A stretch of DNA of 57,022 nt, from UHGV virus genome UHGV-1526745; one strand, given 5' to 3'. This stretch comes from a virus. The notes under the pieces were generated by a model. It worked only from the letters and a program-made list of their open reading frames with translations, did not search any database and was not told the origin of the DNA. Position numbers and translations under genes: made by a program. This document shows positions 2,735 through 47,742 of this stretch, in pieces (within the stretch, counting starts at the first letter, position 1; each line of letters starts with the position of its first letter).

Positions 2735-3055
2735 CCGGTGAGCAGTTTTTCTCCATTATGCTTCAGACTTAGATGATTGATTATTATGGGGATTTCATCA
2801 CCGATATTCAGATGTATGAATATCGGTGATGAACTAAAGCTCAGGAGCTGCGTGGTGGTGATGAATCAACAGGCATATAACTGATACCCGCCGGTCAGAA
2901 GTTCCAGCCTGCGACTTTCCTGTCTGCGTGCCCGCAGTCCGGCGTTCAGGTGCAGCGTGTGACAGAACGCACGGAGAGCGAAACGGCAGGCAGACAGGCC
3001 GTTCAGTCAGCCCTGGCACCCTGCCCGGATACCAGCTTCCCTGAAACAACTGGCA

Positions 3056-6162: not shown

Positions 6163-6183
6163 CCATTTTGTGATCTGTGTTGC
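6163..6183. promoter_or_regulatory. conserved motif TTTTGTGATCTGTGT upstream of tail fibre gene
   Basis: Shares TGTGATCTG(T/C)GT with sites at 12858..12873 and 17964..17979. Confidence 0.35.
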
Positions 6184-6304
6184 ATTTTATGCTTGCACAA
6201 AATGTATTTATTGATTTACGTCAATACAATAAATCATTTACAGTGAATGTAACTTGCCACAATTTATGATGTAAATTATTGGCGTAAAAATAAAAACAAT
6301 GCAT

Positions 6305-12857: not shown

Positions 12858-12873
12858 TGTGATCTGCGTCACG
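12858..12873. promoter_or_regulatory. CRP-like binding site TGTGAtctgcgTCACG
   Basis: Matches TGTGA-N6-TCACA consensus at 9 of 10 positions; centred ~63 bp upstream of predicted start of plus-strand promoter at 12893..12921. Confidence 0.4.
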
Positions 12874-12892
12874 CTAAATCATACCAAAACGG

Positions 12893-12921
12893 TTGATCGC
12901 GATTTTTACAATATGTATATT
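12893..12921 (+). promoter_or_regulatory. sigma70-like promoter for plus-strand moron cluster 1
   Basis: TTGATC-N17-TATATT upstream of ATG at 12938. Confidence 0.4.
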
Positions 12922-12937
12922 GTACTCAAAAGGAAGC

Positions 12938-13123
12938 ATGGTTAACAAAATGGCGCTGAGGTGTGAAATGGATGATAAGGTGTGGAGGTTGACGGTGTTC
13001 CTTGCTGATGGCAGGAAAATGACTGTGGCCCTGTATAAAGATGAAGGCGAGGCACTTACCGACGCGCTCTTACTCGCTGAAGATGAACGCGTTTTGGGGT
13101 ACAGGATCGAACCTGTCAAATGA
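12938..13123 (+). CDS. hypothetical moron protein (61 aa)
   Basis: ATG with AAAAGGAAG RBS inside track ORF 12893..13123; opposite strand to tail operon. Confidence 0.4.
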   Translation: MVNKMALRCEMDDKVWRLTVFLADGRKMTVALYKDEGEALTDALLLAEDERVLGYRIEPVK

Positions 13124-13135
13124 GAGGTTAACGAA

Positions 13136-13486
13136 ATGCAAAAATATAGTTTAGAAATATGGACTGATAAGTGTGAATGGGAGCGCATGGGCCTGTTTGA
13201 CACATACGCCGCAGCGCGTGATGAAGGTAGTGAGTTACTTCGCTGTTGGTCTGGCGCTCGTGATTTTGATATTACTCCGGTCCAAGTACCGGACCTGGTG
13301 GAAGAGATGAACCCGAAAGATATTAACTTTAACGTCAATGTTGAATTTGCAGACTCTATGGATCAGGCTTGCCCTGGTGAAATACACGCAAAAGGTTTTC
13401 CGGCTGACGATCCAGAAGCAAAACGAGAATACGAAAAAGCTGCGAAAGACTTCTGCATAGATAACCTGGCCGCATTCGATAAATAA
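13136..13486 (+). CDS. hypothetical moron protein (116 aa)
   Basis: Track ORF; tightly follows previous gene; no family recognised. Confidence 0.45.
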   Translation: MQKYSLEIWTDKCEWERMGLFDTYAAARDEGSELLRCWSGARDFDITPVQVPDLVEEMNPKDINFNVNVEFADSMDQACPGEIHAKGFPADDPEAKREYEKAAKDFCIDNLAAFDK

Positions 13487-13495
13487 GGCGGCAAC

Positions 13496-13744
13496 ATGGG
13501 GCGGCGCAATCACGGCGATTATGTGTACACGCTGAAACAGGCCGCCCGCCTCATCGGTTATCATGAGCACGAATTTATTGATTTGCTGATTGAGCGCGGG
13601 ATACTGTACCAGGTCTGTTTAACGCTGTACCCGAAAGCGAAATACCTACAGGAAAAGTTATTCATCATCATGACGGATGAAAACCAGGTTAATCATTCAT
13701 TCGTCACTGATAAGGGATTGACATATTTGAAGGGGGCGTTATGA
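13496..13744 (+). CDS. hypothetical moron protein (82 aa), possible HTH
   Basis: Track ORF; segment YTLKQAARLIGYHEHEFIDLLIERGIL looks helix-turn-helix-like. Confidence 0.45.
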   Translation: MGRRNHGDYVYTLKQAARLIGYHEHEFIDLLIERGILYQVCLTLYPKAKYLQEKLFIIMTDENQVNHSFVTDKGLTYLKGAL

Positions 13745-13819
13745 GATGTGCGAACATTACGTTCTGGAAATGATCATTATCATTATTGGATTGTTATGCA
13801 TTCTGCTATCGACACTATA

Positions 13820-13847
13820 AACCCCGCCGTGGCGGGGTATTTTTTAA
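13820..13847. terminator. rho-independent terminator ending moron cluster 1
   Basis: Hairpin CCCCGCC-GTG-GCGGGG followed by TATTTTTT. Confidence 0.5.
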
Positions 13848-14056
13848 TCGTAGGATAGAAATGCTACTTCTTTGCCATCCCAAGTCGTACAGCCGATATA
13901 TCCATCACCCATATCATGAAGATACCACGTCTCGCCGTTATCAGCTTGTACAGTTAGATCATTAATTTCATAGTCGGCAAACAATGTAAAAGCGCCAGTG
14001 CGCTCCACTACACAAAAATAAGGCATATCCCCTCCCCTAATTAATAACTTGCTCAA
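13844..14056 (-). CDS. hypothetical protein (70 aa)
   Basis: Track ORF between M homologue and terminator; no family recognised. Confidence 0.35.
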   Translation of the reverse strand: MSKLLIRGGDMPYFCVVERTGAFTLFADYEINDLTVQADNGETWYLHDMGDGYIGCTTWDGKEVAFLSYD

Positions 14057-14390
14057 ATGTTGCGTTTAGCGTGTATAGCGGTCCGTCTTTAGTCATGCTC
14101 CAGCTACGGCAAACAAAAAGCCTTTGCACGTTATCCATTGACGGCGACCAGTAAAAAGCCTCGACCGCGCCGCGCGCCCTCAAGAATGCTTCCGCCTGGA
14201 TTGCTACGTTTTCACCATCACCACATCCGGCGCTACTGCCCTTAAACACCAGGGTGTAGCTATCAAGTAACGGGTTGATACCTTTAACCTGTCTTTGCTC
14301 ATAACCATCGCCCAGCTTAACAACTGATACGTCCGGCTCCCTGGTCACGCTGTAGCTTCGTTGCGGCGTCCATCTGAACACTTCCGGCAT
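14037..14390 (-). CDS. minor tail protein M (lambda gpM-like)
   Basis: MPEVFRW... start after GGGGG RBS; FRW and GDGY motifs and C-terminal FEQVIN resemble lambda gpM (ends FEQVVN). Confidence 0.75.
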   Translation of the reverse strand: MPEVFRWTPQRSYSVTREPDVSVVKLGDGYEQRQVKGINPLLDSYTLVFKGSSAGCGDGENVAIQAEAFLRARGAVEAFYWSPSMDNVQRLFVCRSWSMTKDGPLYTLNATFEQVIN

Positions 14391-14423
14391 AAAACCCCCA
14401 TAAGTCACATTTTGTATATATCT

Positions 14424-14447
14424 TTACGCGCCTCTACGCGAAAAATG
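14424..14447. promoter_or_regulatory. conserved 24-bp element TTTACGCG-N4-CTACGCGAAAAAT (copy 1)
   Basis: Near-identical copy at 27213..27236; both immediately upstream of minus-strand genes (M, portal). Confidence 0.35.
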
Positions 14448-14558
14448 AGATCTTAATCACAATGATTATAGCTAGTTTACAAAATGGCTTCACATAGTGC
14501 GCAACAAGATGTATATAGAAAGCAAGAAGAAAAGCAGTACCAACGAAGGAGGCCAAAA

Positions 14559-14714
14559 ATGAAACGCTATGTAGTGGTAATGCTGAACAACGCATTCGAA
14601 CAAGTGGAAATAGCAATCGTTAAGGGCTTCGACGACGCATTCAAATACGGTCAATTCATGATGAATGCAAAAGAAGATGAATACCGTGATTTCTTCCTGA
14701 AGGCACTCAACTAA
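14559..14714 (+). CDS. hypothetical moron protein (51 aa)
   Basis: ATG after GGAGG RBS within track ORF 14484..14714. Confidence 0.35.
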   Translation: MKRYVVVMLNNAFEQVEIAIVKGFDDAFKYGQFMMNAKEDEYRDFFLKALN

Positions 14715-14731
14715 GGATGATGGGGTGAGTT

Positions 14732-14986
14732 ATGAAACTGGTAGCGATTGATAAAAACCTGAAAGTACAGAAAAACGCACAAGACAGGATTATCAAGAAA
14801 GGGAAGGAACTGCTTAAAGCATTTTTGAAGAAAGAGGCGCGCCCCAAAAAGTTACGTGATGGTTATGGCTTTAAATTCGACATCAACCCTGACTGGAGGC
14901 TGTTTAGCGAAGACCTAAAAGTCTGGTTAATTATCGATCATCTGGAATATAACAGGCACTGTGGAGTCAAAGGGGTGCATAAGTGA
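14732..14986 (+). CDS. hypothetical moron protein (84 aa, Lys-rich)
   Basis: Track ORF; no family recognised. Confidence 0.45.
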   Translation: MKLVAIDKNLKVQKNAQDRIIKKGKELLKAFLKKEARPKKLRDGYGFKFDINPDWRLFSEDLKVWLIIDHLEYNRHCGVKGVHK

Positions 14987-15095
14987 GGTGGGACATGGAG
15001 GACGATAAATTCACCTGGCGGGAGATCTGGAATATTTGGTTGGTGATGTTCGGCAGTGGTTACGTCGCACGTAACGGAAGATTATAGGAGGAAAA

Positions 15096-15281
15096 ATGAT
15101 TATTGACGAAACAGAGTTATGTTACGGAGTTAGGTTAGATCTTGATGAGGATGGTCGGCTATGGATAACCGAACTCATGGGGACTGACACCCTCGTAATT
15201 GACAAATCGCAGGCGACGCAACTTATCGCCGGGCTTCAAAAATTTATAGATGGCACATTTGAGAACGATCAGGAGGATTAA
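15096..15281 (+). CDS. hypothetical moron protein (61 aa, acidic)
   Basis: Track ORF with AGGAGG RBS. Confidence 0.4.
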   Translation: MIIDETELCYGVRLDLDEDGRLWITELMGTDTLVIDKSQATQLIAGLQKFIDGTFENDQED

Positions 15282-15283
15282 CA

Positions 15284-15571
15284 ATGGATTTAACCGTCAT
15301 TGGTCACGCACTGGCTGCGGCGGCTATGCAGGTTGTTATCGGCCTGCTTACTGGTGATTATCTCACTGGCGGCCTGATTGGATGTACATTCTTTTTTGCA
15401 CGCGAACACACGCAGGCTGAATATCGTTACATAGCGGAATTTTGCGGTGGAAAACGGGAAAGAATGCCGTGGTATGGCGGATTATTACCTAAAGCATGGA
15501 ATATGGCTAGCGTTTGCGACTTCGCCGCACCTGTATTCCTGTGCTGTTTGATTTATATTCTCACCATGTAA
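15284..15571 (+). CDS. hypothetical inner-membrane protein (95 aa)
   Basis: Track ORF; two or three hydrophobic segments. Confidence 0.5.
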   Translation: MDLTVIGHALAAAAMQVVIGLLTGDYLTGGLIGCTFFFAREHTQAEYRYIAEFCGGKRERMPWYGGLLPKAWNMASVCDFAAPVFLCCLIYILTM

Positions 15572-15575
15572 AATA

Positions 15576-15596
15576 AAGGCCGCTTATAGCGGCCTT
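15576..15596. terminator. bidirectional rho-independent terminator (after TMP and after moron cluster 2)
   Basis: Hairpin AAGGCCGC-TTATA-GCGGCCTT with T-tract on minus strand and A/T flank on plus. Confidence 0.5.
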
Positions 15597-15600
15597 AGTG

Positions 15601-17946
15601 TTATTTGCGGCGCGGTTGCAACATCCCGCCAGGTCTTTGCGATTCCCTTGTTATCATCTTCATTGCTACACGTTCCATTGTTGATTCAAGTCTGCGGCTG
15701 TCTTCTTCGCTAAATCCGTTTGTGGTTTGAATACTGATACTGACAGGCATACTAAAACCGCCACCGCCGCCAATATCACGACCAGGAATAACCCTGCCGT
15801 TCTCGCCTGGGATCATATATTGGTTGCCGTTAGACGTCTGGAATAGCTCCGGCCTGTTGTGTTCCCCTACGCGGTACATATTGCCACCAATGACGCTACC
15901 ACCATTAAAGCGACCGCCGCCGAAAATTGACGTAGCCAGCGACATGATCGCAGTGAGCGCAGCCGAACCAGCCGCCGCCCAGCTACCGCCAGTTGATGCA
16001 GCCGTTGCCGCCGCCGCCGGGGCCGCCGCCGCCGCGATGCTTCCCTGAGCGGCAACCGCGCTTGCCGTTGTACTTGCTTGAGTTGCCTTGCTTTGTGTTT
16101 CCATCATGATCTGATCTGCTATCCAGTCGGCTGCTATATCAGAAAGTCTGTTGCCAATATTCCCTAGTATATTGCTCCCTAAGTTAGCAAAAACATCGCT
16201 CAATGATTGAGTACCGTTAAGCAGGCCGACAAGCGCATTGCTCATGCCACCTTTAAGGCCATTAACGCAATCACCGATCAGGCCGTTTGTCTGGCTTTGC
16301 GCCTGCCATTGCTCCCATTTCAGATCGCGGATCTGTTGCTCATAGGCTAACAATGCCTGTTTCTGTTGCGCTTCGGTAGCGCCCAGGTCGATAAGCATTT
16401 GCTTACGGACGGCCCATTCATTTTGTACCTGCTGAATAGGGTCAACCTCGCCTTTAAGCTGATTCATCGGGCTTACTATTTGCGCCCATTTATCACGCAA
16501 TTCATCTACCGGAATTTGGGCTAATTCTTCCTTCAGTTCCTTACCTATCCCTTTTTGCGCGGCGCGGTACTCAAGGAGGGTGATTTTACCCTGGGCGAAT
16601 GCAGCATCAATGGCCTTGCCGTTCTCTAACGCTTTGCGCATGGCGGCGGCGTCTTTATTGTACTGGTCAGAAACGCTTATACCCTTGTCACCAAGCGTAT
16701 CCTCTTTGCTTTTCTTGCTGCCACTCTTCTTACCCTTTTTAGGCTTATCAACTGGCTTGTCGAATCCGGTGATCTTGCCGTCGTTGGCTTCTGCCTGTTT
16801 CTGCATAAACTCATCATAAGCGGCAGTCGCGTTTTTAATGTCGTTTGCAAAAGTCATGACTTTACCGACTGTAGGGCCGAATTTCTTCTCATTGTTGCTA
16901 TTTAGTTCTTCCTTGCGCTTATCTACAACCTCCTTCATCCATTTGTAGGCGTCCATAAGTGCCTTGATTGGCATCACCATTGCGATGATCTTCTCTGCCA
17001 CCTCGCCAGCCTTCACAGCCACATCATCAAACATGTCGATGAATTCGCCACCAGCCGTTTTGAGTGTATCGAAGCAGGTTTTAGCGAATTTAGCGCCCTC
17101 ACCTAACCCCTTAACGCCTTTTGTGATTAAGTCGATAGCTGAGACTACGCCATCTGATACGCCGAAAAGATCATCAAGCTGTTCAACAAGACCCATGATT
17201 TCGACTTTAAGCTCATTGATAGCCATGCCGGATGTGCGCGGCAACTGAGCAAACTGCTCGTTTGTTTCCTGCGTAGCCGCCTGGATTGCGTTAACCATCC
17301 TTTCTGCCGTGATCTTGCCGTCCAGCATTTCGGCGCGGAACTGGCCCATAGATAACCCCATCTGACGGGCCATTGTCTGTACGATGGTCGGGGTGTTTTC
17401 AAGTAGGCTGTTAAATTCTTCAGCACGCAGCACGCCGCCGTCTATAGACTGGCGGAACTGGCGCATAGAGTTAGACATCTGTTCCGCTGATGCGCCGCCT
17501 AACGCCCCCATTTTCTGAATAGTGCCAACCAGGTTAAGTAATTGCCCTTCCGTAGCTGACGTGTTCTTCAGTGAGATGGCAAGACCTTGCCATAGCTCGC
17601 CAGTATCCTTCAGGCTTTGCCCCGTTTCCCTGGATATTGCTTTCAGGCCGTCGAAAACCCGTCCGGCGGACTCCGCATCGCCCGTAAGCATTTTGATTTT
17701 TACGCGAAGCATTTTTGCTTGCTCCGCCATATCCATAAATTGGCGCACAGCCTCGGCAGCAATTAGCAAATGGATAACCCTGGTCAGTGCTTTGATGGAT
17801 GTTTTCAGGGTGTTTACCTGGCGGTCAGCCTGTTTTGCGCCGCGCTCTATACGGTCAAAGGCCTGGTCTGCCTGTCGTTGTGCAACGAGAAGTTGACCAG
17901 TTTTTGCATCAACTTCGTAATAAATTGTACCTACACTGGTAGCCAT
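15601..17946 (-). CDS. tail tape measure protein
   Basis: 781-aa ORF, Ala/Gln-rich helical protein at lambda H position. Confidence 0.85.
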   Translation of the reverse strand: MATSVGTIYYEVDAKTGQLLVAQRQADQAFDRIERGAKQADRQVNTLKTSIKALTRVIHLLIAAEAVRQFMDMAEQAKMLRVKIKMLTGDAESAGRVFDGLKAISRETGQSLKDTGELWQGLAISLKNTSATEGQLLNLVGTIQKMGALGGASAEQMSNSMRQFRQSIDGGVLRAEEFNSLLENTPTIVQTMARQMGLSMGQFRAEMLDGKITAERMVNAIQAATQETNEQFAQLPRTSGMAINELKVEIMGLVEQLDDLFGVSDGVVSAIDLITKGVKGLGEGAKFAKTCFDTLKTAGGEFIDMFDDVAVKAGEVAEKIIAMVMPIKALMDAYKWMKEVVDKRKEELNSNNEKKFGPTVGKVMTFANDIKNATAAYDEFMQKQAEANDGKITGFDKPVDKPKKGKKSGSKKSKEDTLGDKGISVSDQYNKDAAAMRKALENGKAIDAAFAQGKITLLEYRAAQKGIGKELKEELAQIPVDELRDKWAQIVSPMNQLKGEVDPIQQVQNEWAVRKQMLIDLGATEAQQKQALLAYEQQIRDLKWEQWQAQSQTNGLIGDCVNGLKGGMSNALVGLLNGTQSLSDVFANLGSNILGNIGNRLSDIAADWIADQIMMETQSKATQASTTASAVAAQGSIAAAAAPAAAATAASTGGSWAAAGSAALTAIMSLATSIFGGGRFNGGSVIGGNMYRVGEHNRPELFQTSNGNQYMIPGENGRVIPGRDIGGGGGFSMPVSISIQTTNGFSEEDSRRLESTMERVAMKMITRESQRPGGMLQPRRK

Positions 17947-17963
17947 GATTTAACCTCATGCAA

Positions 17964-17979
17964 AAATGTGATCTGTGTA
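17964..17979. promoter_or_regulatory. conserved motif AAATGTGATCTGTGTA (CRP-like left half-site)
   Basis: AAATGTGATCT matches the left half of the CRP consensus; right half does not. Confidence 0.35.
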
Positions 17980-17986
17980 TCTATTT

Positions 17987-18027
17987 TATACAAAATGGCT
18001 TTACTTCAACGACTCCATTTTGTATAA
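17987..18027. promoter_or_regulatory. perfect 12-bp inverted repeat TATACAAAATGG-N17-CCATTTTGTATA
   Basis: Read directly; sits between TMP start and plus-strand lipoprotein gene. Confidence 0.45.
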
Positions 18028-18073
18028 GGAAGCCAAAGGGAAAGGTCAGTAAATCAAGTTAGCGTGGTGGGTT

Positions 18074-18733
18074 ATGAAACGGTTAGCAAAAGTGGCAATG
18101 ATTGCGGCGGTATTGGGTCTGGTTGGTTGCAATGAGGATAATGAAAAAGCGCCTATAGTGACCAATCAAGAACAACAAGCATTAGCAGAGAAAAATGCTA
18201 AATGGCTTGCAGAACAACAAGCAAAACAAGCCGCATACGATGCACAGTTAGAAAAAGAAAATGCTGGTAAACAGTGGCTTGTAGTTGAAAGAAAAGATGA
18301 TATGCAGGACGCAAAAAACGTATTCCTTTTTGTGAAAGCAGAACAATTCAGCGGAAGTCTTGATGCTTTCCCGACACTGAAGGCACAGGATAAGAATAAA
18401 CCGGTATTAACAATCGCTTGCCAGGGTAATAAAACAAAAATGTTCGTAGCATGGTCACACCATGTAACTGACGCCGGGGACACTACTTATATTAACTACC
18501 GGATCGGCGTTCACAAAGCTGTAGCTACTGAGTGGGGGCGGTCAACTAATTATAAAGCTCTTGGATTATGGGATGGCAAAAAAGCCATCCCAATGATTAA
18601 AAAAATGGTTAACGAAAAACAATTCATCATTGAAGTAGTGCCGGAAGCTGGCGACATTGAGAAAGCAGTGTTTAACATTGATGGTCTTTATAACCACATC
18701 GACAAAGTGAAAAACGCTTGCAACTGGAATTAA
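18074..18733 (+). CDS. lipoprotein (219 aa) moron
   Basis: Signal peptide with LVGC lipobox; GGTGGG RBS. Confidence 0.6.
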   Translation: MKRLAKVAMIAAVLGLVGCNEDNEKAPIVTNQEQQALAEKNAKWLAEQQAKQAAYDAQLEKENAGKQWLVVERKDDMQDAKNVFLFVKAEQFSGSLDAFPTLKAQDKNKPVLTIACQGNKTKMFVAWSHHVTDAGDTTYINYRIGVHKAVATEWGRSTNYKALGLWDGKKAIPMIKKMVNEKQFIIEVVPEAGDIEKAVFNIDGLYNHIDKVKNACNWN

Positions 18734-18743
18734 GGGGTAAATC

Positions 18744-19118
18744 ATGAAAAACATAATCAAAGCGGCTCTCATTGGTGTTATGGCTTTAGCTCTTACAGGG
18801 TGCGCAAGATCAACTGATTTCGTTAAGTTAGCTGATAAAAAATTGCAAGTTGGAATGACTTGTGAGCAAGTGAATAAAATAATGGGGGAACCACAAAGAA
18901 TCGAGCATGACGGTAATTATAGTTATCACGTATGGTATTCAGTAACCAGCACGATAGGATTTACTTACATGGATGTTGAAGAATTATCCCCTTCAAGGGT
19001 TATCGCAAAGTTTGATAACTGCATCCTAAAAGAATGGAAAGATCGCAGTAAGGCAAAGTCTGTATACAATACAATCACACACAGTTCACCAGGTACAGCA
19101 ATTAAAGATTTCAATTAG
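18744..19118 (+). CDS. lipoprotein (124 aa), BamE/SmpA-OmlA-like
   Basis: Signal peptide with LTGC lipobox; QVGMTCEQVNKIMGEP resembles SmpA/OmlA motif. Confidence 0.55.
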   Translation: MKNIIKAALIGVMALALTGCARSTDFVKLADKKLQVGMTCEQVNKIMGEPQRIEHDGNYSYHVWYSVTSTIGFTYMDVEELSPSRVIAKFDNCILKEWKDRSKAKSVYNTITHSSPGTAIKDFN

Positions 19119-19132
19119 CAAAACGCCCTGAT

Positions 19133-19819
19133 CTACCGGGCTTTTTCTTGCTCACGATTTTTCATTCTTTCTAGTGCCTTTTTAGCGGCCTCCATTTGCT
19201 CGTCATAAGCACGTTTATTTATGTGAATGTTTGGCTTGCTTCTCTCGTTTCTTTCGTCTGGCGGCGTTTTAGCGCGTACAGCGGCCCTATATCCGGTCAT
19301 TGTCATATTCCATGCTTCCGATTCTGACAAGCCCAGGTGAGCAACGGCAGAATAAACGAATTCCAGCACGTTAAAAGTAGGCTTATATTCCCCTTCCCGG
19401 ATCTCTCCGGCGTCTTCTTCCGGCCCGTCACCGATTAAGCCGTGGTACATGCAATGCTGCGCCAGCGTGATAACGTCACTGGTAGGCATCAGTCCTGGTC
19501 TTAGCCGTAACTTGCCGGAAGGAGTAAACCTACATTCGCCTAATAGCGTGCCTATTTCGTCGTCTGAGCAACATTTCAGGATGTGCATGGACGTTTGCAC
19601 CATTTCACCATAACACCGCGCCATAATGCGATTGCGAAGGTCTGGATCCGCTGGCAATCGTGATGGATATTTGCCACCGTGTATGGTTGCGAAGTATTCG
19701 ACCAGTTCGCTGTCACTGCCGATTTTAGCCATTGCAGCGAAGCAGGGATTAAACACGTACCGCCTGCCGTCTACCACCGCCGCAAATTGTCCCGTTCGAA
19801 CATGGATCATAGCTGTCAC
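19133..19819 (-). CDS. tail assembly chaperone (positional)
   Basis: 228-aa ORF between major tail and tape measure genes. Confidence 0.4.
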   Translation of the reverse strand: MTAMIHVRTGQFAAVVDGRRYVFNPCFAAMAKIGSDSELVEYFATIHGGKYPSRLPADPDLRNRIMARCYGEMVQTSMHILKCCSDDEIGTLLGECRFTPSGKLRLRPGLMPTSDVITLAQHCMYHGLIGDGPEEDAGEIREGEYKPTFNVLEFVYSAVAHLGLSESEAWNMTMTGYRAAVRAKTPPDERNERSKPNIHINKRAYDEQMEAAKKALERMKNREQEKAR

Positions 19820-19864
19820 CTTAAAAGAAAGGGGCCAGATGGCCCCGATTGTTAATATTGATTA

Positions 19865-20341
19865 TTATGCTGCTGGGATGTCGCCAACCGTCACCTTGCC
19901 AGCACTTGAACACTCAATGGACCAGGTGGAAACGTCGTCGTTAGGGTCTTCTTCTTTAAAGGAAGTGCAAAGAAACGGACCTTCAGTCACATCAGCCGGG
20001 GAAACAATTTTAAGCCAAACATATGGTTGCGATCCGGTTGTTTCGCCTGGGTTAATAACGTGGCGTTTAAGTGCCTTCTGATTATGAATTTCTTCAGTAC
20101 GGGATACGCCGTCACCTGAGAAAGAAACAGATTTGTAAGTGACAAGTGATTCTTTGGTGTAGTCTGCTGATTTATCAGCGGTGGCGTCTGCGGTTTCCCA
20201 TTCTACGGAAAGCGTTTTGCCGCGCATCATGCCTAACGCTTTATAAGAGCCGTCTTCAGGTTTCACGTTAGGACAAGCGATAGCGTAGAATACAGCAACG
20301 TCGCGGCCTAAAAACGCGCCTTTTTCGCAAGTCTGAGACAT
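19865..20341 (-). CDS. major tail protein (positional)
   Basis: 158-aa ORF upstream of chaperone/TMP. Confidence 0.55.
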   Translation of the reverse strand: MSQTCEKGAFLGRDVAVFYAIACPNVKPEDGSYKALGMMRGKTLSVEWETADATADKSADYTKESLVTYKSVSFSGDGVSRTEEIHNQKALKRHVINPGETTGSQPYVWLKIVSPADVTEGPFLCTSFKEEDPNDDVSTWSIECSSAGKVTVGDIPAA

Positions 20342-20354
20342 GTTTAATTACCTC

Positions 20355-20741
20355 TTATCTGGATATGATGGTTTGAAAAGCTACGGTAAAAATAAAGCGC
20401 CCTTCTCTTGTCTGCATCGCAGGAATAGCGCCAACTGGCTTCATGTGTGTAATTTTATCAGTTTTATATTCTGTTAACATACTTTGACGGATGGCGTCGG
20501 CAAGGTCTTCCACTTCACTGATATTTGCATCATTACGCGCTGAAATAACCAGGATGCGGAAATAATCACGGGTTATTGCTTCTTCACCAGCCGCGCCGCC
20601 GTTCTGCTGGATCACGATGTATCTGTCATTATTCGAATTACTTCGCTCATTCCAGAAACGGGCCTGCAAAATATAGCCCTCATCGTATCCGTGAGACTGT
20701 ATCCAGTCTCTTATATTGTCGTAGACTTCGCTGCGTTTCAT
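20355..20741 (-). CDS. tail terminator / head-tail joining protein (positional)
   Basis: 128-aa ORF upstream of major tail gene. Confidence 0.4.
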   Translation of the reverse strand: MKRSEVYDNIRDWIQSHGYDEGYILQARFWNERSNSNNDRYIVIQQNGGAAGEEAITRDYFRILVISARNDANISEVEDLADAIRQSMLTEYKTDKITHMKPVGAIPAMQTREGRFIFTVAFQTIISR

Positions 20742-38873: not shown

Positions 38874-39033
38874 AATGCTCTCTCCTTTTTCAGGTGATTT
38901 TTACGCATTTCAGCGTTACCGGATTTTTAAAGAGCATTTTGTTTGTTTGAAGTATACAAAACGGATACATGCGAACAAACAATAAAGCGCCATTATGTGA
39001 TCCGCATCACACAATGACGCCATTTTGTAAACA

Positions 39034-42492: not shown

Positions 42493-42591
42493 TTTTGCTT
42501 CCTCCGCACCGTAAACCTTTTGATTTCGGCTTACAAAACGGATATACAATCACAATACAAAATGTATATTTATGTGATCGGAATTACTCGG

Positions 42592-46289: not shown

Positions 46290-46750
46290 AATCTGATCTC
46301 CGTATATCCTTGATGATACTTAATAAAAAATCATCTTCGTTAATTGCCGCACTTCCAGCGGCTGACCAGATTGTTAATGAGCGGCTTAACATCTTTCAAC
46401 TAATCCCGCAATCATCGCCGTTCCCGGCGTGACCTTGCTCACTCCAAGCAAGCTGACTCGTCGCCTTGCGTGCGGTTTCGTGGGGGATGTAACGCTTTAA
46501 ACACCCCATGCGCCTTGTTATCAGTGCCGCTTTCGGTCCCCCATCGGGGAGTTACTCCACGGTTGACAAGGTGTTAAGCCTGATTTTTAAAGTGCCAGGA
46601 AGTTGCTTTTGTTACCTGCGCCCTTCCTTTGACTCGCAATATACGCCCCGTAAAACATCGAGTCAATCCATTTTGTATACTTTTTTAAAATATTTTATAT
46701 GCCATTGATATTTAAATAATAAATAACGTTTTCTGTTTACGTTTTGGTGT

Positions 46751-46789: not shown

Positions 46790-47437
46790 TTATGGCAGGT
46801 TTACGATCTTCGCATCAACCACCACGCCTATAATTTTTGATTCTGGATTCATAGGGATTGGCGGATACAGCGGATTGAGCGAACGTAAAAGCCTTTGACC
46901 TCCATCAATAATCAACTGTTTAAACGTCGGTATCTGCCCTTCCTCAAGCTGGGCTATAACCAGTTTGCCGTCAATAGCTGGCGCGTGCGGGTCCACAAGT
47001 ATCATCGTCCCCGCCGGGATGCTCAACCCCTGCGGCGCGTTCATTGATTCACCTTTGGCAACCAGCCAGTAACTGTCATCTGAACAAATAACGCTAGTCG
47101 TAACGTGTCGTAATGCTGAACGCCTTGCGTCATCCATATTGTTTACTGTGTCCTTCCAGTCAATAACCGGGTAACTACCTAAATCACGCGGCGGCACGGC
47201 CTGAAGTGTATTAGAAACAGAATCATCAATGACCATGCCATCATGTGTAACAGTAAACTGCCGACGACCAAGCTCGCGCATAATCCGCGCAATATCTTCA
47301 AGATTTGGCTCTCGGCGACCGTTCAGCCAGTGTGACAGGCCGCCTTTAGTTATCCCCATACGATCCGCGAGCGAATCCTGGCTCATGCCCTGCGCCCGCA
47401 TGAGCTGCTTTGCTAAGTCATACCATTTTGTTTTCAT
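46790..47437 (-). CDS. CI-like repressor (HTH_XRE + S24 LexA-like peptidase)
   Basis: N-terminal HTH (QDSLADRMGITKGGLSHWLNGRREP), C-terminal KGESM / ILVDP autocleavage-type region. Confidence 0.85.
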   Translation of the reverse strand: MKTKWYDLAKQLMRAQGMSQDSLADRMGITKGGLSHWLNGRREPNLEDIARIMRELGRRQFTVTHDGMVIDDSVSNTLQAVPPRDLGSYPVIDWKDTVNNMDDARRSALRHVTTSVICSDDSYWLVAKGESMNAPQGLSIPAGTMILVDPHAPAIDGKLVIAQLEEGQIPTFKQLIIDGGQRLLRSLNPLYPPIPMNPESKIIGVVVDAKIVNLP

Positions 47438-47439
47438 GT

Positions 47440-47742
47440 CGCTACCCTATAACCTCAAAAAGTTTGATGCAAGTCACAAAACGTGTATTTTAAGCCTTGA
47501 TCTTAAAATTCCATTTTGTAAACTTGCAGACAAGGTAAGGCCATACTTGCAAAGACGCAAGGAAAAAGATAACGGAAGGCACAAAAAGGCACTTACCTTA
47601 TGCTCTTTAAAAATCCGGTGTCGCTGCGAAGCGAAAAACAAATATCACGCAACGGCGGGATCTGTTGAGCGGTCAGTCACTGCTATCTAATGCTAATGGG
47701 ATGCCCGCCCGCGCGTTCACTCTAACCATAGGAGAAAATGCG
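47440..47742. promoter_or_regulatory. right operator/promoter region
   Basis: Divergent intergenic region; inverted repeats CTTGCAGACAAG and CTTGCAAAGACGCAAG (47523..47562) plus CCATTTTGTA motif. Confidence 0.4.

Follow-up and report, generated by a model that had tools for sequence, protein, structure and literature searches.

A putative repressor-controlled lipoprotein cassette in a fixed slot of mEp021-like prophages

Two lipoprotein genes in the tail gene region of an Escherichia coli prophage form what we read as a moron cassette, placed in a fixed slot of the mEpimmI phages, with a repressor-type operator pair at its promoter and cargo for the envelope. We give this reading, taken as a whole, an even chance of being correct. 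The window, i.e. the entire stretch of 57,022 nt that was analysed, is an mEp021-like (mEpimmI) E. coli prophage. The phage group has been described (PMC11893012), and according to the same work mEpimmI phages are as common as lambdoid phages in human faeces. A preliminary description had interpreted the locus as two lipoprotein morons behind a perfect inverted repeat next to a CRP-like half-site, an interpretation that as a whole is partly supported.

The slot and its exchangeable cargo

The ORFs and strands are as first described, with two plus-strand lipoprotein genes located between a gene in the chaperone position and the tape measure protein (TMP) gene:

15601-17946, minus strand: TMP gene (PF20155, 1.9e-49), the slot's downstream border on the late strand
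18074-18733, plus strand: lipoprotein 1 (219 aa, starts MKRLAKVAMIAAVLGLVGC; lipobox LVGC, Asn at +2)
18744-19118, plus strand: lipoprotein 2 (124 aa, starts MKNIIKAALIGVMALALTGC; lipobox LTGC, Ala at +2)
19125-19146, plus strand: intrinsic terminator GCCCTG ATCTA CCGGGC TTTTT, overlapping the 3' end of the DUF6246 gene
19133-19819, minus strand: DUF6246 gene (PF19759, 2.7e-56), the slot's upstream border on the late strand

The DUF6246 gene occupies the usual position of the tail assembly chaperone, with the tail tube gene beyond it. Since both flanking genes are encoded on the minus strand and the cassette on the plus strand, the cassette is antisense to the late operon. Its two ORFs are separated by 10 nt, the second start being preceded by AAGGGG, and the GC content of the cargo (0.41 and 0.37) compares with 0.50-0.51 in the flanks. 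The DUF6246 and TMP genes are directly adjacent in one relative (L019), with no cassette between them.

The slot was surveyed in 55 related loci, which comprise 37 distinct sequences. Throughout these loci the upstream control block (~85 bp) and the terminator are kept and the cargo is swapped: at least 8 different cargo proteins occur in 19 cargo architectures, nearly always with a signal peptide, a lipobox or a membrane segment. Six main cargo clusters are found, together with some single-case cargos:

VasI lipoprotein, n = 20
138-aa secreted protein, n = 18
BamE-like lipoprotein, n = 12
100-aa membrane protein, n = 10
106-aa protein, n = 8
119-aa secreted protein, n = 6

Defence-system models gave zero matches for the cargo of the window or for the other slot cargo. 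The terminator shared by the 55 loci has the form GCCCGG-N5-CCGGGC-T, and the annotations of mEp013, mEp021 and mEp515 list it as such. The stem in the window is weakened by a G>T change that is present in one of the 55 loci, and a terminator scan of the window came back empty because of this change. The cassette is an unusual case of the known class of phage accessory cassettes; it does not constitute a new type of system.

The two lipoproteins

The lipoboxes LVGC and LTGC stand as given in the preliminary description. Both proteins are predicted to reside in the outer membrane, because Asp at +2 is absent in both. Lipoprotein 1 consists of a helix (residues 31-63) followed by a beta-sandwich corresponding to a VasI/TagO domain, with conserved Cys116 and Cys216. 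This domain was at first overlooked: the match to Pfam PF11319 (VasI) reaches 57.9 bits (gathering threshold 26.5), spans model positions 25-184 of 184, and includes conserved columns that are common to lipoprotein 1 and 59 family members. A fold search among viral proteins matched solely uncharacterised phage proteins, and sequence searches against solved structures returned nothing.

The VasI/TagO domain is a recurrent cargo of unrelated temperate phages (siphoviruses as well as P2-like, Brucella, Labrenzia and Pasteurella phages). Its genes occupy places typical of accessory genes. In P2-like prophages the PF11319 gene follows ogr at the prophage end; in Pasteurella Pmp14 it is found near the tail chaperone genes; in Brucella phage BiPBO1 it follows a CI-like repressor gene immediately and in the same orientation, and in a Labrenzia phage it lies close to the immunity genes. 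A further VasI homolog (54% identity) is carried by another phage with a different upstream region, hence the inverted repeat described below is a property of the phage backbone, not of the cargo.

Lipoprotein 2 has a BamE/OsmE/BLIP-type fold, in which an antiparallel sheet is covered by two helices; Cys40 and Cys93 are invariant. Its earlier label "BamE/OmlA-like" is borne out by the fold but not by sequence, as the match to PF04355 (SmpA_OmlA) covers residues 32-51 only and stays below the threshold (20.2 versus 23.2 bits). The OsmE model NF008423 gives 16.2 bits (cut-off 65). Across Pfam, NCBIfam and PHROGs, the cassette proteins match VasI, BamE-type families weakly, and PHROG families of unknown function; the same three collections show no homology to Llp, Cor or the Lpp proteins tested in mEpimmI phages, and the PADLOC search was empty.

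PGAP names proteins identical to lipoprotein 1 TagO, and the lipoproteins might act on type VI secretion (T6SS), either as an accessory of the host T6SS or as a guard of the infected or lysogenic cell against the T6SS of its neighbours. We consider this improbable. Lipoprotein 1 scores far below the equivalog cut-off of NCBIfam TIGR03360 (45.8 versus 124.2 bits), no T6SS genes are located near its gene, the neighbours being phage tail genes, and the fold matches concern a small and common fold. Moreover, a homolog of lipoprotein 2 is carried by mEp013, which was isolated on E. coli K-12, a strain not known to have a functional T6SS. The function of TagO is itself listed as unknown (PMC13584744), which likewise weakens the assignment.

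The inverted repeat and the predicted promoter

The control region upstream of lipoprotein 1 consists of the following elements:

17967-17982, plus strand: CRP-like 16-mer TGTGATCTGTGTATCT, centre at ~-60.5/-61.5 from the predicted start site
17986-17998, plus strand: left arm TTATACAAAATGG, containing the operator-like 13-mer ATACAAAATGGCT (17988-18000, centre ~-41)
18000-18005, plus strand: predicted -35 hexamer TTTACT, read from the sequence and variable among relatives
18015-18027, plus strand: right arm CCATTTTGTATAA, with the operator-like 13-mer CTCCATTTTGTAT (18013-18025, centre ~-16), overlapping the predicted -10
18023-18028, plus strand: predicted -10 TATAAG, N17 from the predicted -35 TTTACT

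The predicted promoter, whose start would lie near 18035, is absent from a consensus promoter scan because its -10 lacks the final T. The inverted repeat is indeed perfect, with arms of 13 nt and a spacer of 16 nt in place of the 12 bp and N17 first reported. Perfect 12-nt inverted repeats with a loop of 3-40 nt occur at 3 loci in the window versus 0.155 expected per dinucleotide shuffle, and at least one is found in 13.5% of the shuffles. The repeat by itself is therefore just moderately unlikely, and conservation decides. The arms are kept in all 37 distinct sequences from the 55 related loci, their cores TATACAAAATG and C(A/G)TTTTGTATA being invariant bar one A/G position, and many positions of the intervening spacer are variable, the putative -35 included. 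In about half of the relatives the right arm reads ATACATTTTGTAT, which matches 8 of 8 operator positions (mEp021 37648).

We infer from these sequence patterns that the arms are a pair of operator-like sites for repressors of the phage's CI-type family and not a hairpin signal. Both arms conform to (G)TATACA-N-GT, an operator class that phages whose CI-type repressors are homologous carry in the rep-cro gap and at early promoters. The best element common to the rep-cro region and the early promoter of the window is NT[AT]TA[CA]AAAA[TC]G[GT], which occurs 11 times in the window (0.35 expected, shuffle maximum 2) and also at syntenic sites in mEp021. Phages fetched solely by Rep homology (38% identity) harbor three GTATACA-N-GT sites in a 112-bp rep-cro gap, and phages with the slot-type repeat at an early promoter have site pairs that are exactly 25 bp apart. 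One of these early promoters follows the gene of a Rep homolog that is 44% identical overall and nearly identical in the helix-turn-helix region; others precede boxA and an ORF for an Arg-rich N-like protein. A test for 25-bp pairs in the window recovered the slot (17988/18013), the phage's own early promoter (46641/46666), one probable chance match, and nothing else; pairs of this kind span the -35 and -10 of the slot promoter, of the window's early promoter and of four related early promoters. Rep is at least 90% identical across all slot-bearing contigs. When species-representative genomes were searched for the pattern of the repeat, most matches were chance ones in AT-rich unrelated taxa, but two enterobacterial cases were informative.

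Several observations count against the operator model, at least in a simple form. Measured against the palindromic model ATAC-N5-GTAT, the two arms of the window agree at only 6 of 8 positions each; this model is not enriched window-wide (8 versus 5.3 expected), whereas the asymmetric form is (8 versus 0.5). The rep-cro copies of mEpimmI phages are rather degenerate, one being variable among relatives, and copies of the motif are also located by ribosome-binding sites and beside a terminator. The study of the mEpimmI phages defines no operators for them (PMC11893012); a pRep021 clone exists (PMC11893012).

The repeat could instead be an RNA hairpin in the late minus-strand mRNA, acting by the TMP ribosome-binding site as a stabiliser, processing site or pause. 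It precedes the TMP start by 39-81 nt and would enter the late mRNA, and folding of the minus strand gives -13.5 kcal/mol (z = -2.0). Nevertheless we regard a hairpin as very unlikely. The stem, AT-rich and closed by a loop of 16 nt, is weak, pairs 12 and 13 are lost without compensation in about half of the relatives, compensatory changes are absent altogether, and the one A>G change would give an A-C mismatch on the late strand. Elsewhere the motif occurs in single copies, each arm tends to its own pseudo-palindrome, and an Rfam match for the hairpin is absent.

Other candidates were discarded. An intrinsic terminator is excluded by the missing T-run and the AT-rich stem. The sole Rfam match at E<=1 in 13500-20500 is a sub-threshold P9 sRNA away from the cassette. 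Host factor sites compared by eye (TyrR, CpxR, PhoP, OmpR, Fis, IHF, LexA and DnaA boxes) show partial resemblance at most; for the DnaA box, TTATACAAA matches 8 of 9 positions in the two arms alone and not in the other copies of the motif. A small ORF starting at the motif's ATG is not common to the window and mEp021.

The CRP-like half-site of the preliminary description is present (AAATGTGATCT at 17964-17974); in the 16-mer the left half is perfect to consensus and the right half poor (2-3 of 5). The 16-mer agrees with the consensus at 7 of 10 positions, its centre is placed at ~-60.5 from the predicted start site, and its TGTGAT is invariant in the 37 distinct slot sequences. CRP-like 16-mers precede all four antisense islands, the sites of the sister islands matching 9 of 10 positions. 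Sites with at most one mismatch are mildly enriched in the window (5 versus 2.0), a count that 5 of 100 shuffles reach.

These sites bear on a more conventional explanation, namely a lysogenic-conversion moron with an autonomous promoter, CRP-activated and of class I, that is active in the lysogen. The A-rich left arm would then be an UP-like site for alpha-CTD (or mediate activation by Rep at ~-41, as lambda CI does at PRM), and the right arm merely part of the -10 region. The CRP-like sites at ~-60.5, -62.5 and -70.5 are near class I positions, and in four promoters, the early one and those of islands 1, 2 and 2b, the motif directly adjoins the -35. The consensus of the proximal UP subsite is AAAAAARNR, and positions -46 to -38 (TACAAAATG) come close to it. 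The anti-late orientation and the low GC content are typical of lysogen-expressed morons, and the VasI genes found by immunity genes in BiPBO1 and the Labrenzia phage point in the same direction. We nonetheless hold this explanation to be rather unlikely: an UP element explains neither why the right arm ahead of the -10 is invariant nor why the A-tract is flanked by TAC and G. It likewise does not account for the 25-bp pairing common with the early promoter, which must be repressed, or for the rep-cro triplets of the same site in related phages.

Proposed function and comparison with known systems

According to the operator reading, the accessory ('moron') cassette between the DUF6246 and TMP genes would be transcribed against the late operon as a two-gene operon, encoding the VasI/TagO-domain lipoprotein and the small BamE/BLIP-fold lipoprotein, both predicted to be outer-membrane proteins. 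The operator-like sites at ~-41 and ~-16 of the putative sigma-70 promoter TTTACT-N17-TATAAG are 25 bp apart, a layout that would be the same as at the early promoters of this phage and of related phages. Because the operator-like pair lies at the predicted promoter, the cassette is predicted to be off or low in the lysogen via the repressor. It would fire early after infection or induction, ahead of late antisense transcription, and may also respond to cAMP-CRP through the CRP-like site ~61 bp upstream. The lipoproteins would then most likely alter the envelope or protect it from later phage attack, in the manner of early exclusion lipoproteins such as Llp of T5.

Our guess is that protection of the envelope from incoming phage is the most likely role, a choice made from context, not homology. 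The known receptors are OmpA for mEp021 and LamB for mEp010, mEp044 and mEp554 (PMC11893012). The latter three match the slot region to the same extent as mEp021, their cargo type being judged from the extent of this match. One other cargo type thus appears common to OmpA- and LamB-using phages, which argues against a simple masking of the phage's own receptor. More speculatively, VasI/TagO proteins could constitute a widespread anti-injection shield of temperate phages, with the T6SS copies being a related use of the fold; loss of the repressor would here turn on the VasI lipoprotein together with its BLIP-fold partner, and the two would block envelope penetration by incoming phage or T6SS tails during the lytic cycle. 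We rate this as a long shot. If true, it would provide the first molecular role for TagO, an orphan accessory protein of the T6SS.

Accessory genes in late operons are usually assumed to be expressed in the lysogen. If our reading of the slot holds, a whole set of antisense islands with the build of repressor-controlled early promoters would alter the interpretation of this kind of cargo, and the candidate operator motif would make the mEpimmI immunity circuit directly testable. In addition, one small coliphage gene would offer a simple genetic system for finding the job of the VasI/TagO domain.

Among known systems, the cassette resembles the lambdoid morons (lambda bor and lom; HK97/HK022) in being an extra unit between conserved late genes with its own terminator and, as predicted here, its own promoter, with a GC content below that of the flanks, variable presence among relatives, and envelope proteins as products. 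It differs in being a fixed multi-allelic slot, where the control block is conserved and the cargo exchangeable, and in having a promoter bracketed by repressor-type operator-like sites, so that it may not be expressed in the lysogen.

Llp of T5 is expressed early, which would fit a repressor-controlled, early-type promoter of the slot. Llp, Cor (phi80/N15/HK022) and Lpp021/Lpp010 (PMC11893012) are likewise phage lipoproteins encoded in the structural gene region. The slot proteins, however, show no sequence or family match to them, exceed them in size (219 and 124 aa) and adopt defined folds (VasI beta-sandwich and BamE/BLIP), and their genes adjoin the tape-measure gene instead of the receptor-binding gene. 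The tested mEpimmI Lpp genes (mEp021 gp81 and mEp010 gp116) are distinct from the slot cargo (mEp021 gp63); an Lpp-type lipobox ORF was not found in the window, where the J-fibre gap is without a gene, and the supplements of PMC11893012 list no lipoprotein types other than the tested ones.

With VasI/TagO (PF11319, TIGR03360; VCA0118 of V. cholerae) lipoprotein 1 shares the C-terminal domain, a conserved Trp, the Cys...Cys pair and a C-terminal ACNW motif. The phage protein is a lipoprotein in which a helical linker replaces the Cys-rich RLSCYD N-terminal repeats, it remains under the equivalog cut-off, and its gene lies in a tail operon instead of a T6SS cluster.

The operator-like pair, finally, recalls OR1-OR2 and OL1-OL2 of lambda, where two sites ~24-25 bp apart also straddle the -35 and -10 and one type of site serves the immunity region and the early promoter. 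The C1 operators of phage P1 are dispersed over its genome, as are the copies of the motif here. Compared with the lambda and P1 operators, the slot sites are putative 13-nt pseudo-palindromes that are strongly asymmetric and in inverted orientation.

The lipoprotein cassette and its products

Two plus-strand lipoprotein genes with LVGC and LTGC lipoboxes had been placed between a tail chaperone gene and the tape measure gene in the preliminary description, and ORF calls and the flanking genes bear this out.

15601-17946, minus strand: tape measure protein (PF20155)
18074-18733, plus strand: lipoprotein 1, 219 aa (...GLVGC)
18744-19118, plus strand: lipoprotein 2, 124 aa (...ALTGC)
19125-19146: cassette terminator, hairpin and T-run, 3' of the lipoprotein 2 gene
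19133-19819, minus strand: DUF6246 protein, in the chaperone position after the tail tube gene

Both cassette ORFs carry standard lipoprotein signals. The genes are read as one operon because 10 nt separate them and an AAGGGG ribosome-binding site precedes the second, and the cassette is antisense to the late operon, since both neighbouring genes lie on the minus strand. The GC content of the cargo genes is 0.41 and 0.37, versus 0.50 in the flanking tail genes. Lipoproteins without Asp at position +2 are sorted to the outer membrane (the standard Lol rule); Asp is absent from this position in both mature proteins, so that an outer-membrane destination is predicted and both should reside there.

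Lipoprotein 1 matches the Pfam domain VasI (PF11319) with 57.9 bits (cut-off 26.5). It scores below the cut-off of the NCBIfam equivalog model for type VI secretion VasI (45.8 versus 124.2 bits), despite which PGAP names it TagO. Only 12 clusters in 5.8 billion sequences make up its clade. In an AlphaFold model from a 60-sequence alignment (pLDDT 86.6), a long helix (residues 31-63) leads into a beta-sandwich; Cys 116, Cys 216 and a C-terminal ACNW motif are kept across the family, consistent with a periplasmic protein. [quoted passage not shown] A role of the cassette tied to type VI secretion is conceivable.

VasI-domain genes are recurrent cargo of phages. In P2-like phages and prophages of Escherichia, Klebsiella, Citrobacter and Pectobacterium such a gene lies directly 3' of ogr at the prophage end; in six P2-like prophage loci (L142, L144, L145, L012, L013, L016) the order is ogr, a 110-aa zinc-ribbon protein and then the VasI-domain gene. 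It stands immediately behind a CI-like repressor gene in Brucella phage BiPBO1 (locus L017), adjoins immunity genes in a Labrenzia phage, and in Pasteurella phage Pmp14 has the tail chaperone on one side and a large downstream gene on the other. The phage proteins are covered by PHROG 1848 (unknown function), and we found no paper on VasI-domain genes as recurrent phage cargo. Many Enterobacterales proteins labelled 'T6SS-associated TagO' in databases are prophage cargo, for which the label is likely misleading.

Lipoprotein 2 belongs to a tiny family (2 representatives at E<1e-10 among 1.84 billion); the mEp013 copy is 85% identical. Its earlier description as BamE/OmlA-like is right at fold level: the Pfam BamE score is slightly below threshold and the structure model moderate (pLDDT 70, one good model in five), and PF04355 appears in 7 of 10 distant profile matches. 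The unrelated Flyfo siphovirus Tbat2_3 (locus L147, 3031-3372) encodes an SmpA/OmlA-family protein with 29% identity to lipoprotein 2, just downstream of its tape measure gene and beside a YafO toxin gene.

A slot with exchangeable cargo

The window belongs to a group of mEp021-like E. coli prophages, with flanks 77-92% identical to mEp021, mEp013, mEp010, mEp044, mEp554, mEp515 and MagusPhagus. The whole cassette occurs in 14 complete E. coli genomes (query coverage at least 80%) with identity up to 98%. This 'mEpimmI' group has been described as Nus-dependent and non-lambdoid with one common immunity (PMC11893012).

We compared 55 loci sharing the upstream block (45 IMG/VR contigs, 4 phages, 5 E. 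coli genomes and the window). All 55 have a common upstream block of ~85 bp and a terminator, GCCCGG-N5-CCGGGC-T, and between them 19 different gene arrangements are found. The stem in the window (19125-19130) reads GCCCTG versus GCCCGG, a G>T change seen in only one of the 55 loci that should weaken termination into the DUF6246 gene.

Cargo of the slot, by number of loci
VasI-type lipoprotein: 20
138-aa secreted protein: 18
BamE-like lipoprotein: 12
100-aa membrane protein with 35-aa membrane peptide: 10
106-aa protein: 8
119-aa secreted protein: 6
245-aa lipoprotein: 1
165-aa secreted protein: 1

Almost all cargo carries a signal peptide, a lipobox or a membrane segment. The signal peptides are alike (MK[RN][LV].K.A...), and near-identical ones (MKRLAKVAMIAAVLGLVGC, MKRLIKAAVMAVMVGLAFNANA, MKNVIKAALIGVMAFGLVGC, MKSLAKILIVAVLAGVALNANA) precede unrelated mature proteins in the window and in loci L002, L006, L051 and L062, which suggests cargo exchange by recombination inside the signal-peptide coding region. 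In 24 of the 55 loci (L002 at 2000-2090, L007, L005 and 21 others), but not in the window, the slot promoter is followed by a conserved 28-29-aa ORF (MKNVNYRPNEHERYADFIEEMLKALKNKN) that has a strong ribosome-binding site and may encode a leader peptide or a separate small protein. In a more distant phage the DUF6246 and tape measure genes are adjacent and the VasI lipoprotein gene lies elsewhere behind a different upstream region, and the repeat upstream of the cassette is therefore a property of the phage backbone, not of the cargo.

What is established is the layout: envelope cargo that is exchanged between a conserved control block and a terminator, the whole antisense to the late genes. 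In the window no gene was found between the J gene and the fibre gene, but this gap holds the exact 12-mer TGTGATCTGTGT and CACAAAATGT (6169-6205); in strain MS 21-1 the same gap encodes an 81-aa secreted protein (locus L004, 9667-9912). In the window it looks like an empty fourth cargo slot.

Candidate operators and the predicted slot promoter

Upstream of the cassette, a perfect 12-bp inverted repeat with a 17-nt spacer had been reported, next to a CRP-like half-site. The perfect repeat is present, with arms of 13 nt and a spacer of 16 nt instead.

17964-17974: CRP-like half-site, AAATGTGATCT
17986-17998 and 18015-18027: arms of the inverted repeat
46641-46680: candidate mEpimmI repressor operators, a pair straddling the early promoter TTGACT-N17-TATATT downstream of rep
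46790-47437: rep, the CI-type repressor gene
47468-47528: candidate mEpimmI repressor operator, an imperfect palindrome with 27-nt arms in the rep-cro gap

The arm cores, TATACAAAATG and C(A/G)TTTTGTATA, do not vary across the 37 distinct sequences compared. The spacer, putative -35 included, has many variable positions, and the 12th and 13th pairs are missing in about half of the sequences, with no compensation. Because the arms are invariant, the spacer variable and the pair loss uncompensated, selection acts on the sequence of each arm and not on pairing; this pattern and a folding computation leave a reading of the perfect repeat as an RNA hairpin weak. We regard the repeat as two putative operator-like sites.

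The arm motif (NT[AT]TA[CA]AAAA[TC]G[GT]) occurs 11 times in the window versus 0.35 expected (maximum 2 in 200 shuffles), and its copies in mEp021 are in syntenic places. At the early promoter downstream of rep a copy, invariant in 25 distinct sequences, directly adjoins the -35; another lies within the rep-cro gap, the immunity region; others stand upstream of the remaining antisense islands, the gene groups running against the late tail operon. Some adjoin ribosome-binding sites or a terminator, a placement that a simple operator model leaves unexplained. A pattern scan found the same repeat in a Silvania prophage, immediately downstream of a Rep homolog (44% identical, with an almost identical helix-turn-helix region), and in other contigs, followed by boxA CGCTCTTTAA and an Arg-rich N-like ORF. 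These phages have ATAC-N5-GTAT triplets nearby and early-promoter pairs exactly 25 bp apart, as do two contigs fetched through Rep homology alone (38%), where the sites GTATACATAAAGTAG, GTATACAGATTGTCT and GTATACATAACGTAT fill the 112-bp rep-cro gap. The 25-bp spacing recurs twice in the window, between the 13-mers of the slot (17988, 18013) and those of the early promoter (46641, 46666), and at both the TAT of the -10 closes the downstream 13-mer. About half of the slot variants have a full ATACATTTTGTAT as their right arm, which accounts for the loss of arm-to-arm pairing: each arm is a pseudo-palindrome in its own right. By the symmetric model (ATAC-N5-GTAT, 8 scored positions) both window arms reach only 6/8, there is no enrichment across the whole window, and the group's own rep-cro gap has degenerate copies. 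All slot-bearing contigs have one Rep, so that a natural control for the operator reading is absent. The mEpimmI operators were left undefined in the group's paper (PMC11893012).

A perfect ATACAAAATGTAT 13-mer (8/8) lies at 42555-42567, in a short gap between two early minus-strand genes; the gp25-gp26 gap of mEp021 has a 7/8 site and a motif copy. The longest perfect inverted repeat of the window (2794-2839; 17 nt, TTCATCACCGATATTCA, 6-nt loop) lies just 3' of a 517-aa ORF (1181-2734), to the left of the fibre genes of the phage, and may fall outside the prophage.

As for the CRP-like half-site, its TGTGAT is invariant in the 37 distinct sequences. In the 16-mer (TGTGATCTGTGTATCT), centred ~60.5 bp upstream of the predicted start site, the left half is perfect and the right half poor. 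Similar 16-mers open all three other antisense islands of the tail operon.

14446: TGAGATCTTAATCACA
12858: TGTGATCTGCGTCACG
6169: TGTGATCTGTGTTGCA; TTACA in strain MS 21-1

At 14446 and 12858 a motif copy and then a -35/-10 pair come after the 16-mer, whose centre is at ~-70.5 and -62.5, respectively. Enrichment of CRP-like sites with at most one mismatch is mild (5 versus 2.0; 5 of 100 shuffles reach 5). The element thus probably belongs to a real shared design, in which the role of CRP itself is putative. The two island promoters (12858-12921 and 14446-14517; ORFs 12893-13744 and 14484-15571) have the same build as the slot promoter, with the CRP-like 16-mer, ACAAAA(T/C)GG abutting the -35 and GTAT before the -10; a 25-bp spacing also separates the island 13-mers at 12881 and 12906. 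At the tip of a long hairpin terminator (38952-39032), 3' of a cytosine methyltransferase-like gene, stands a perfect CRP consensus core (TGTGATCCGCATCACA, 38996-39011) with two inverted motif copies, 55 nt apart, on either side of it; the element is conserved in mEp021 (20075-20155).

The predicted slot promoter is a sigma-70 promoter, TTTACT-N17-TATAAG, with a start near 18035, repressor-type sites at ~-41 and -16 and the CRP-like site at ~-61. If it works like the early promoter, which has the same design, it would be shut off by the repressor in the lysogen; upon infection or induction it would fire early, ahead of Q-dependent late transcription from the opposite side. The main alternative is activation from the -41 site, as by lambda CI at PRM.

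Probable role of the cassette

Superinfection exclusion has been assayed for two lipoproteins of the group, mEp021 gp81 and mEp010 gp116 (PMC11893012). The slot cargo of mEp021 is gp63, a gene distinct from both. A search for lipobox ORFs found no other non-lysis lipoprotein in the window; the sole further one is the o-spanin (31181-31375).

Most likely, in our analysis, the cassette serves envelope protection against further phage attack, because all slot cargo is envelope-targeted and polymorphic, other temperate phages have VasI-domain genes in their accessory gene sets, and exclusion by early lipoproteins is an established strategy. Lipoproteins 1 and 2 have no homology to any early exclusion lipoprotein. 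One other cargo type is apparently common to phages with different receptors (matches; receptors from PMC11893012), which speaks against a mere masking of the receptor that the phage itself uses. Of the preliminary description, the genes, repeat and position stand, and the proposal of receptor blocking or envelope alteration is supported in part. The points of interest are the multi-allelic envelope-protein slot that holds the cassette, the VasI/TagO-domain lipoprotein carried here as a common phage cargo, and a putative promoter apparently wired to the phage's immunity repressor. The cassette itself is a moron cassette, a known kind.
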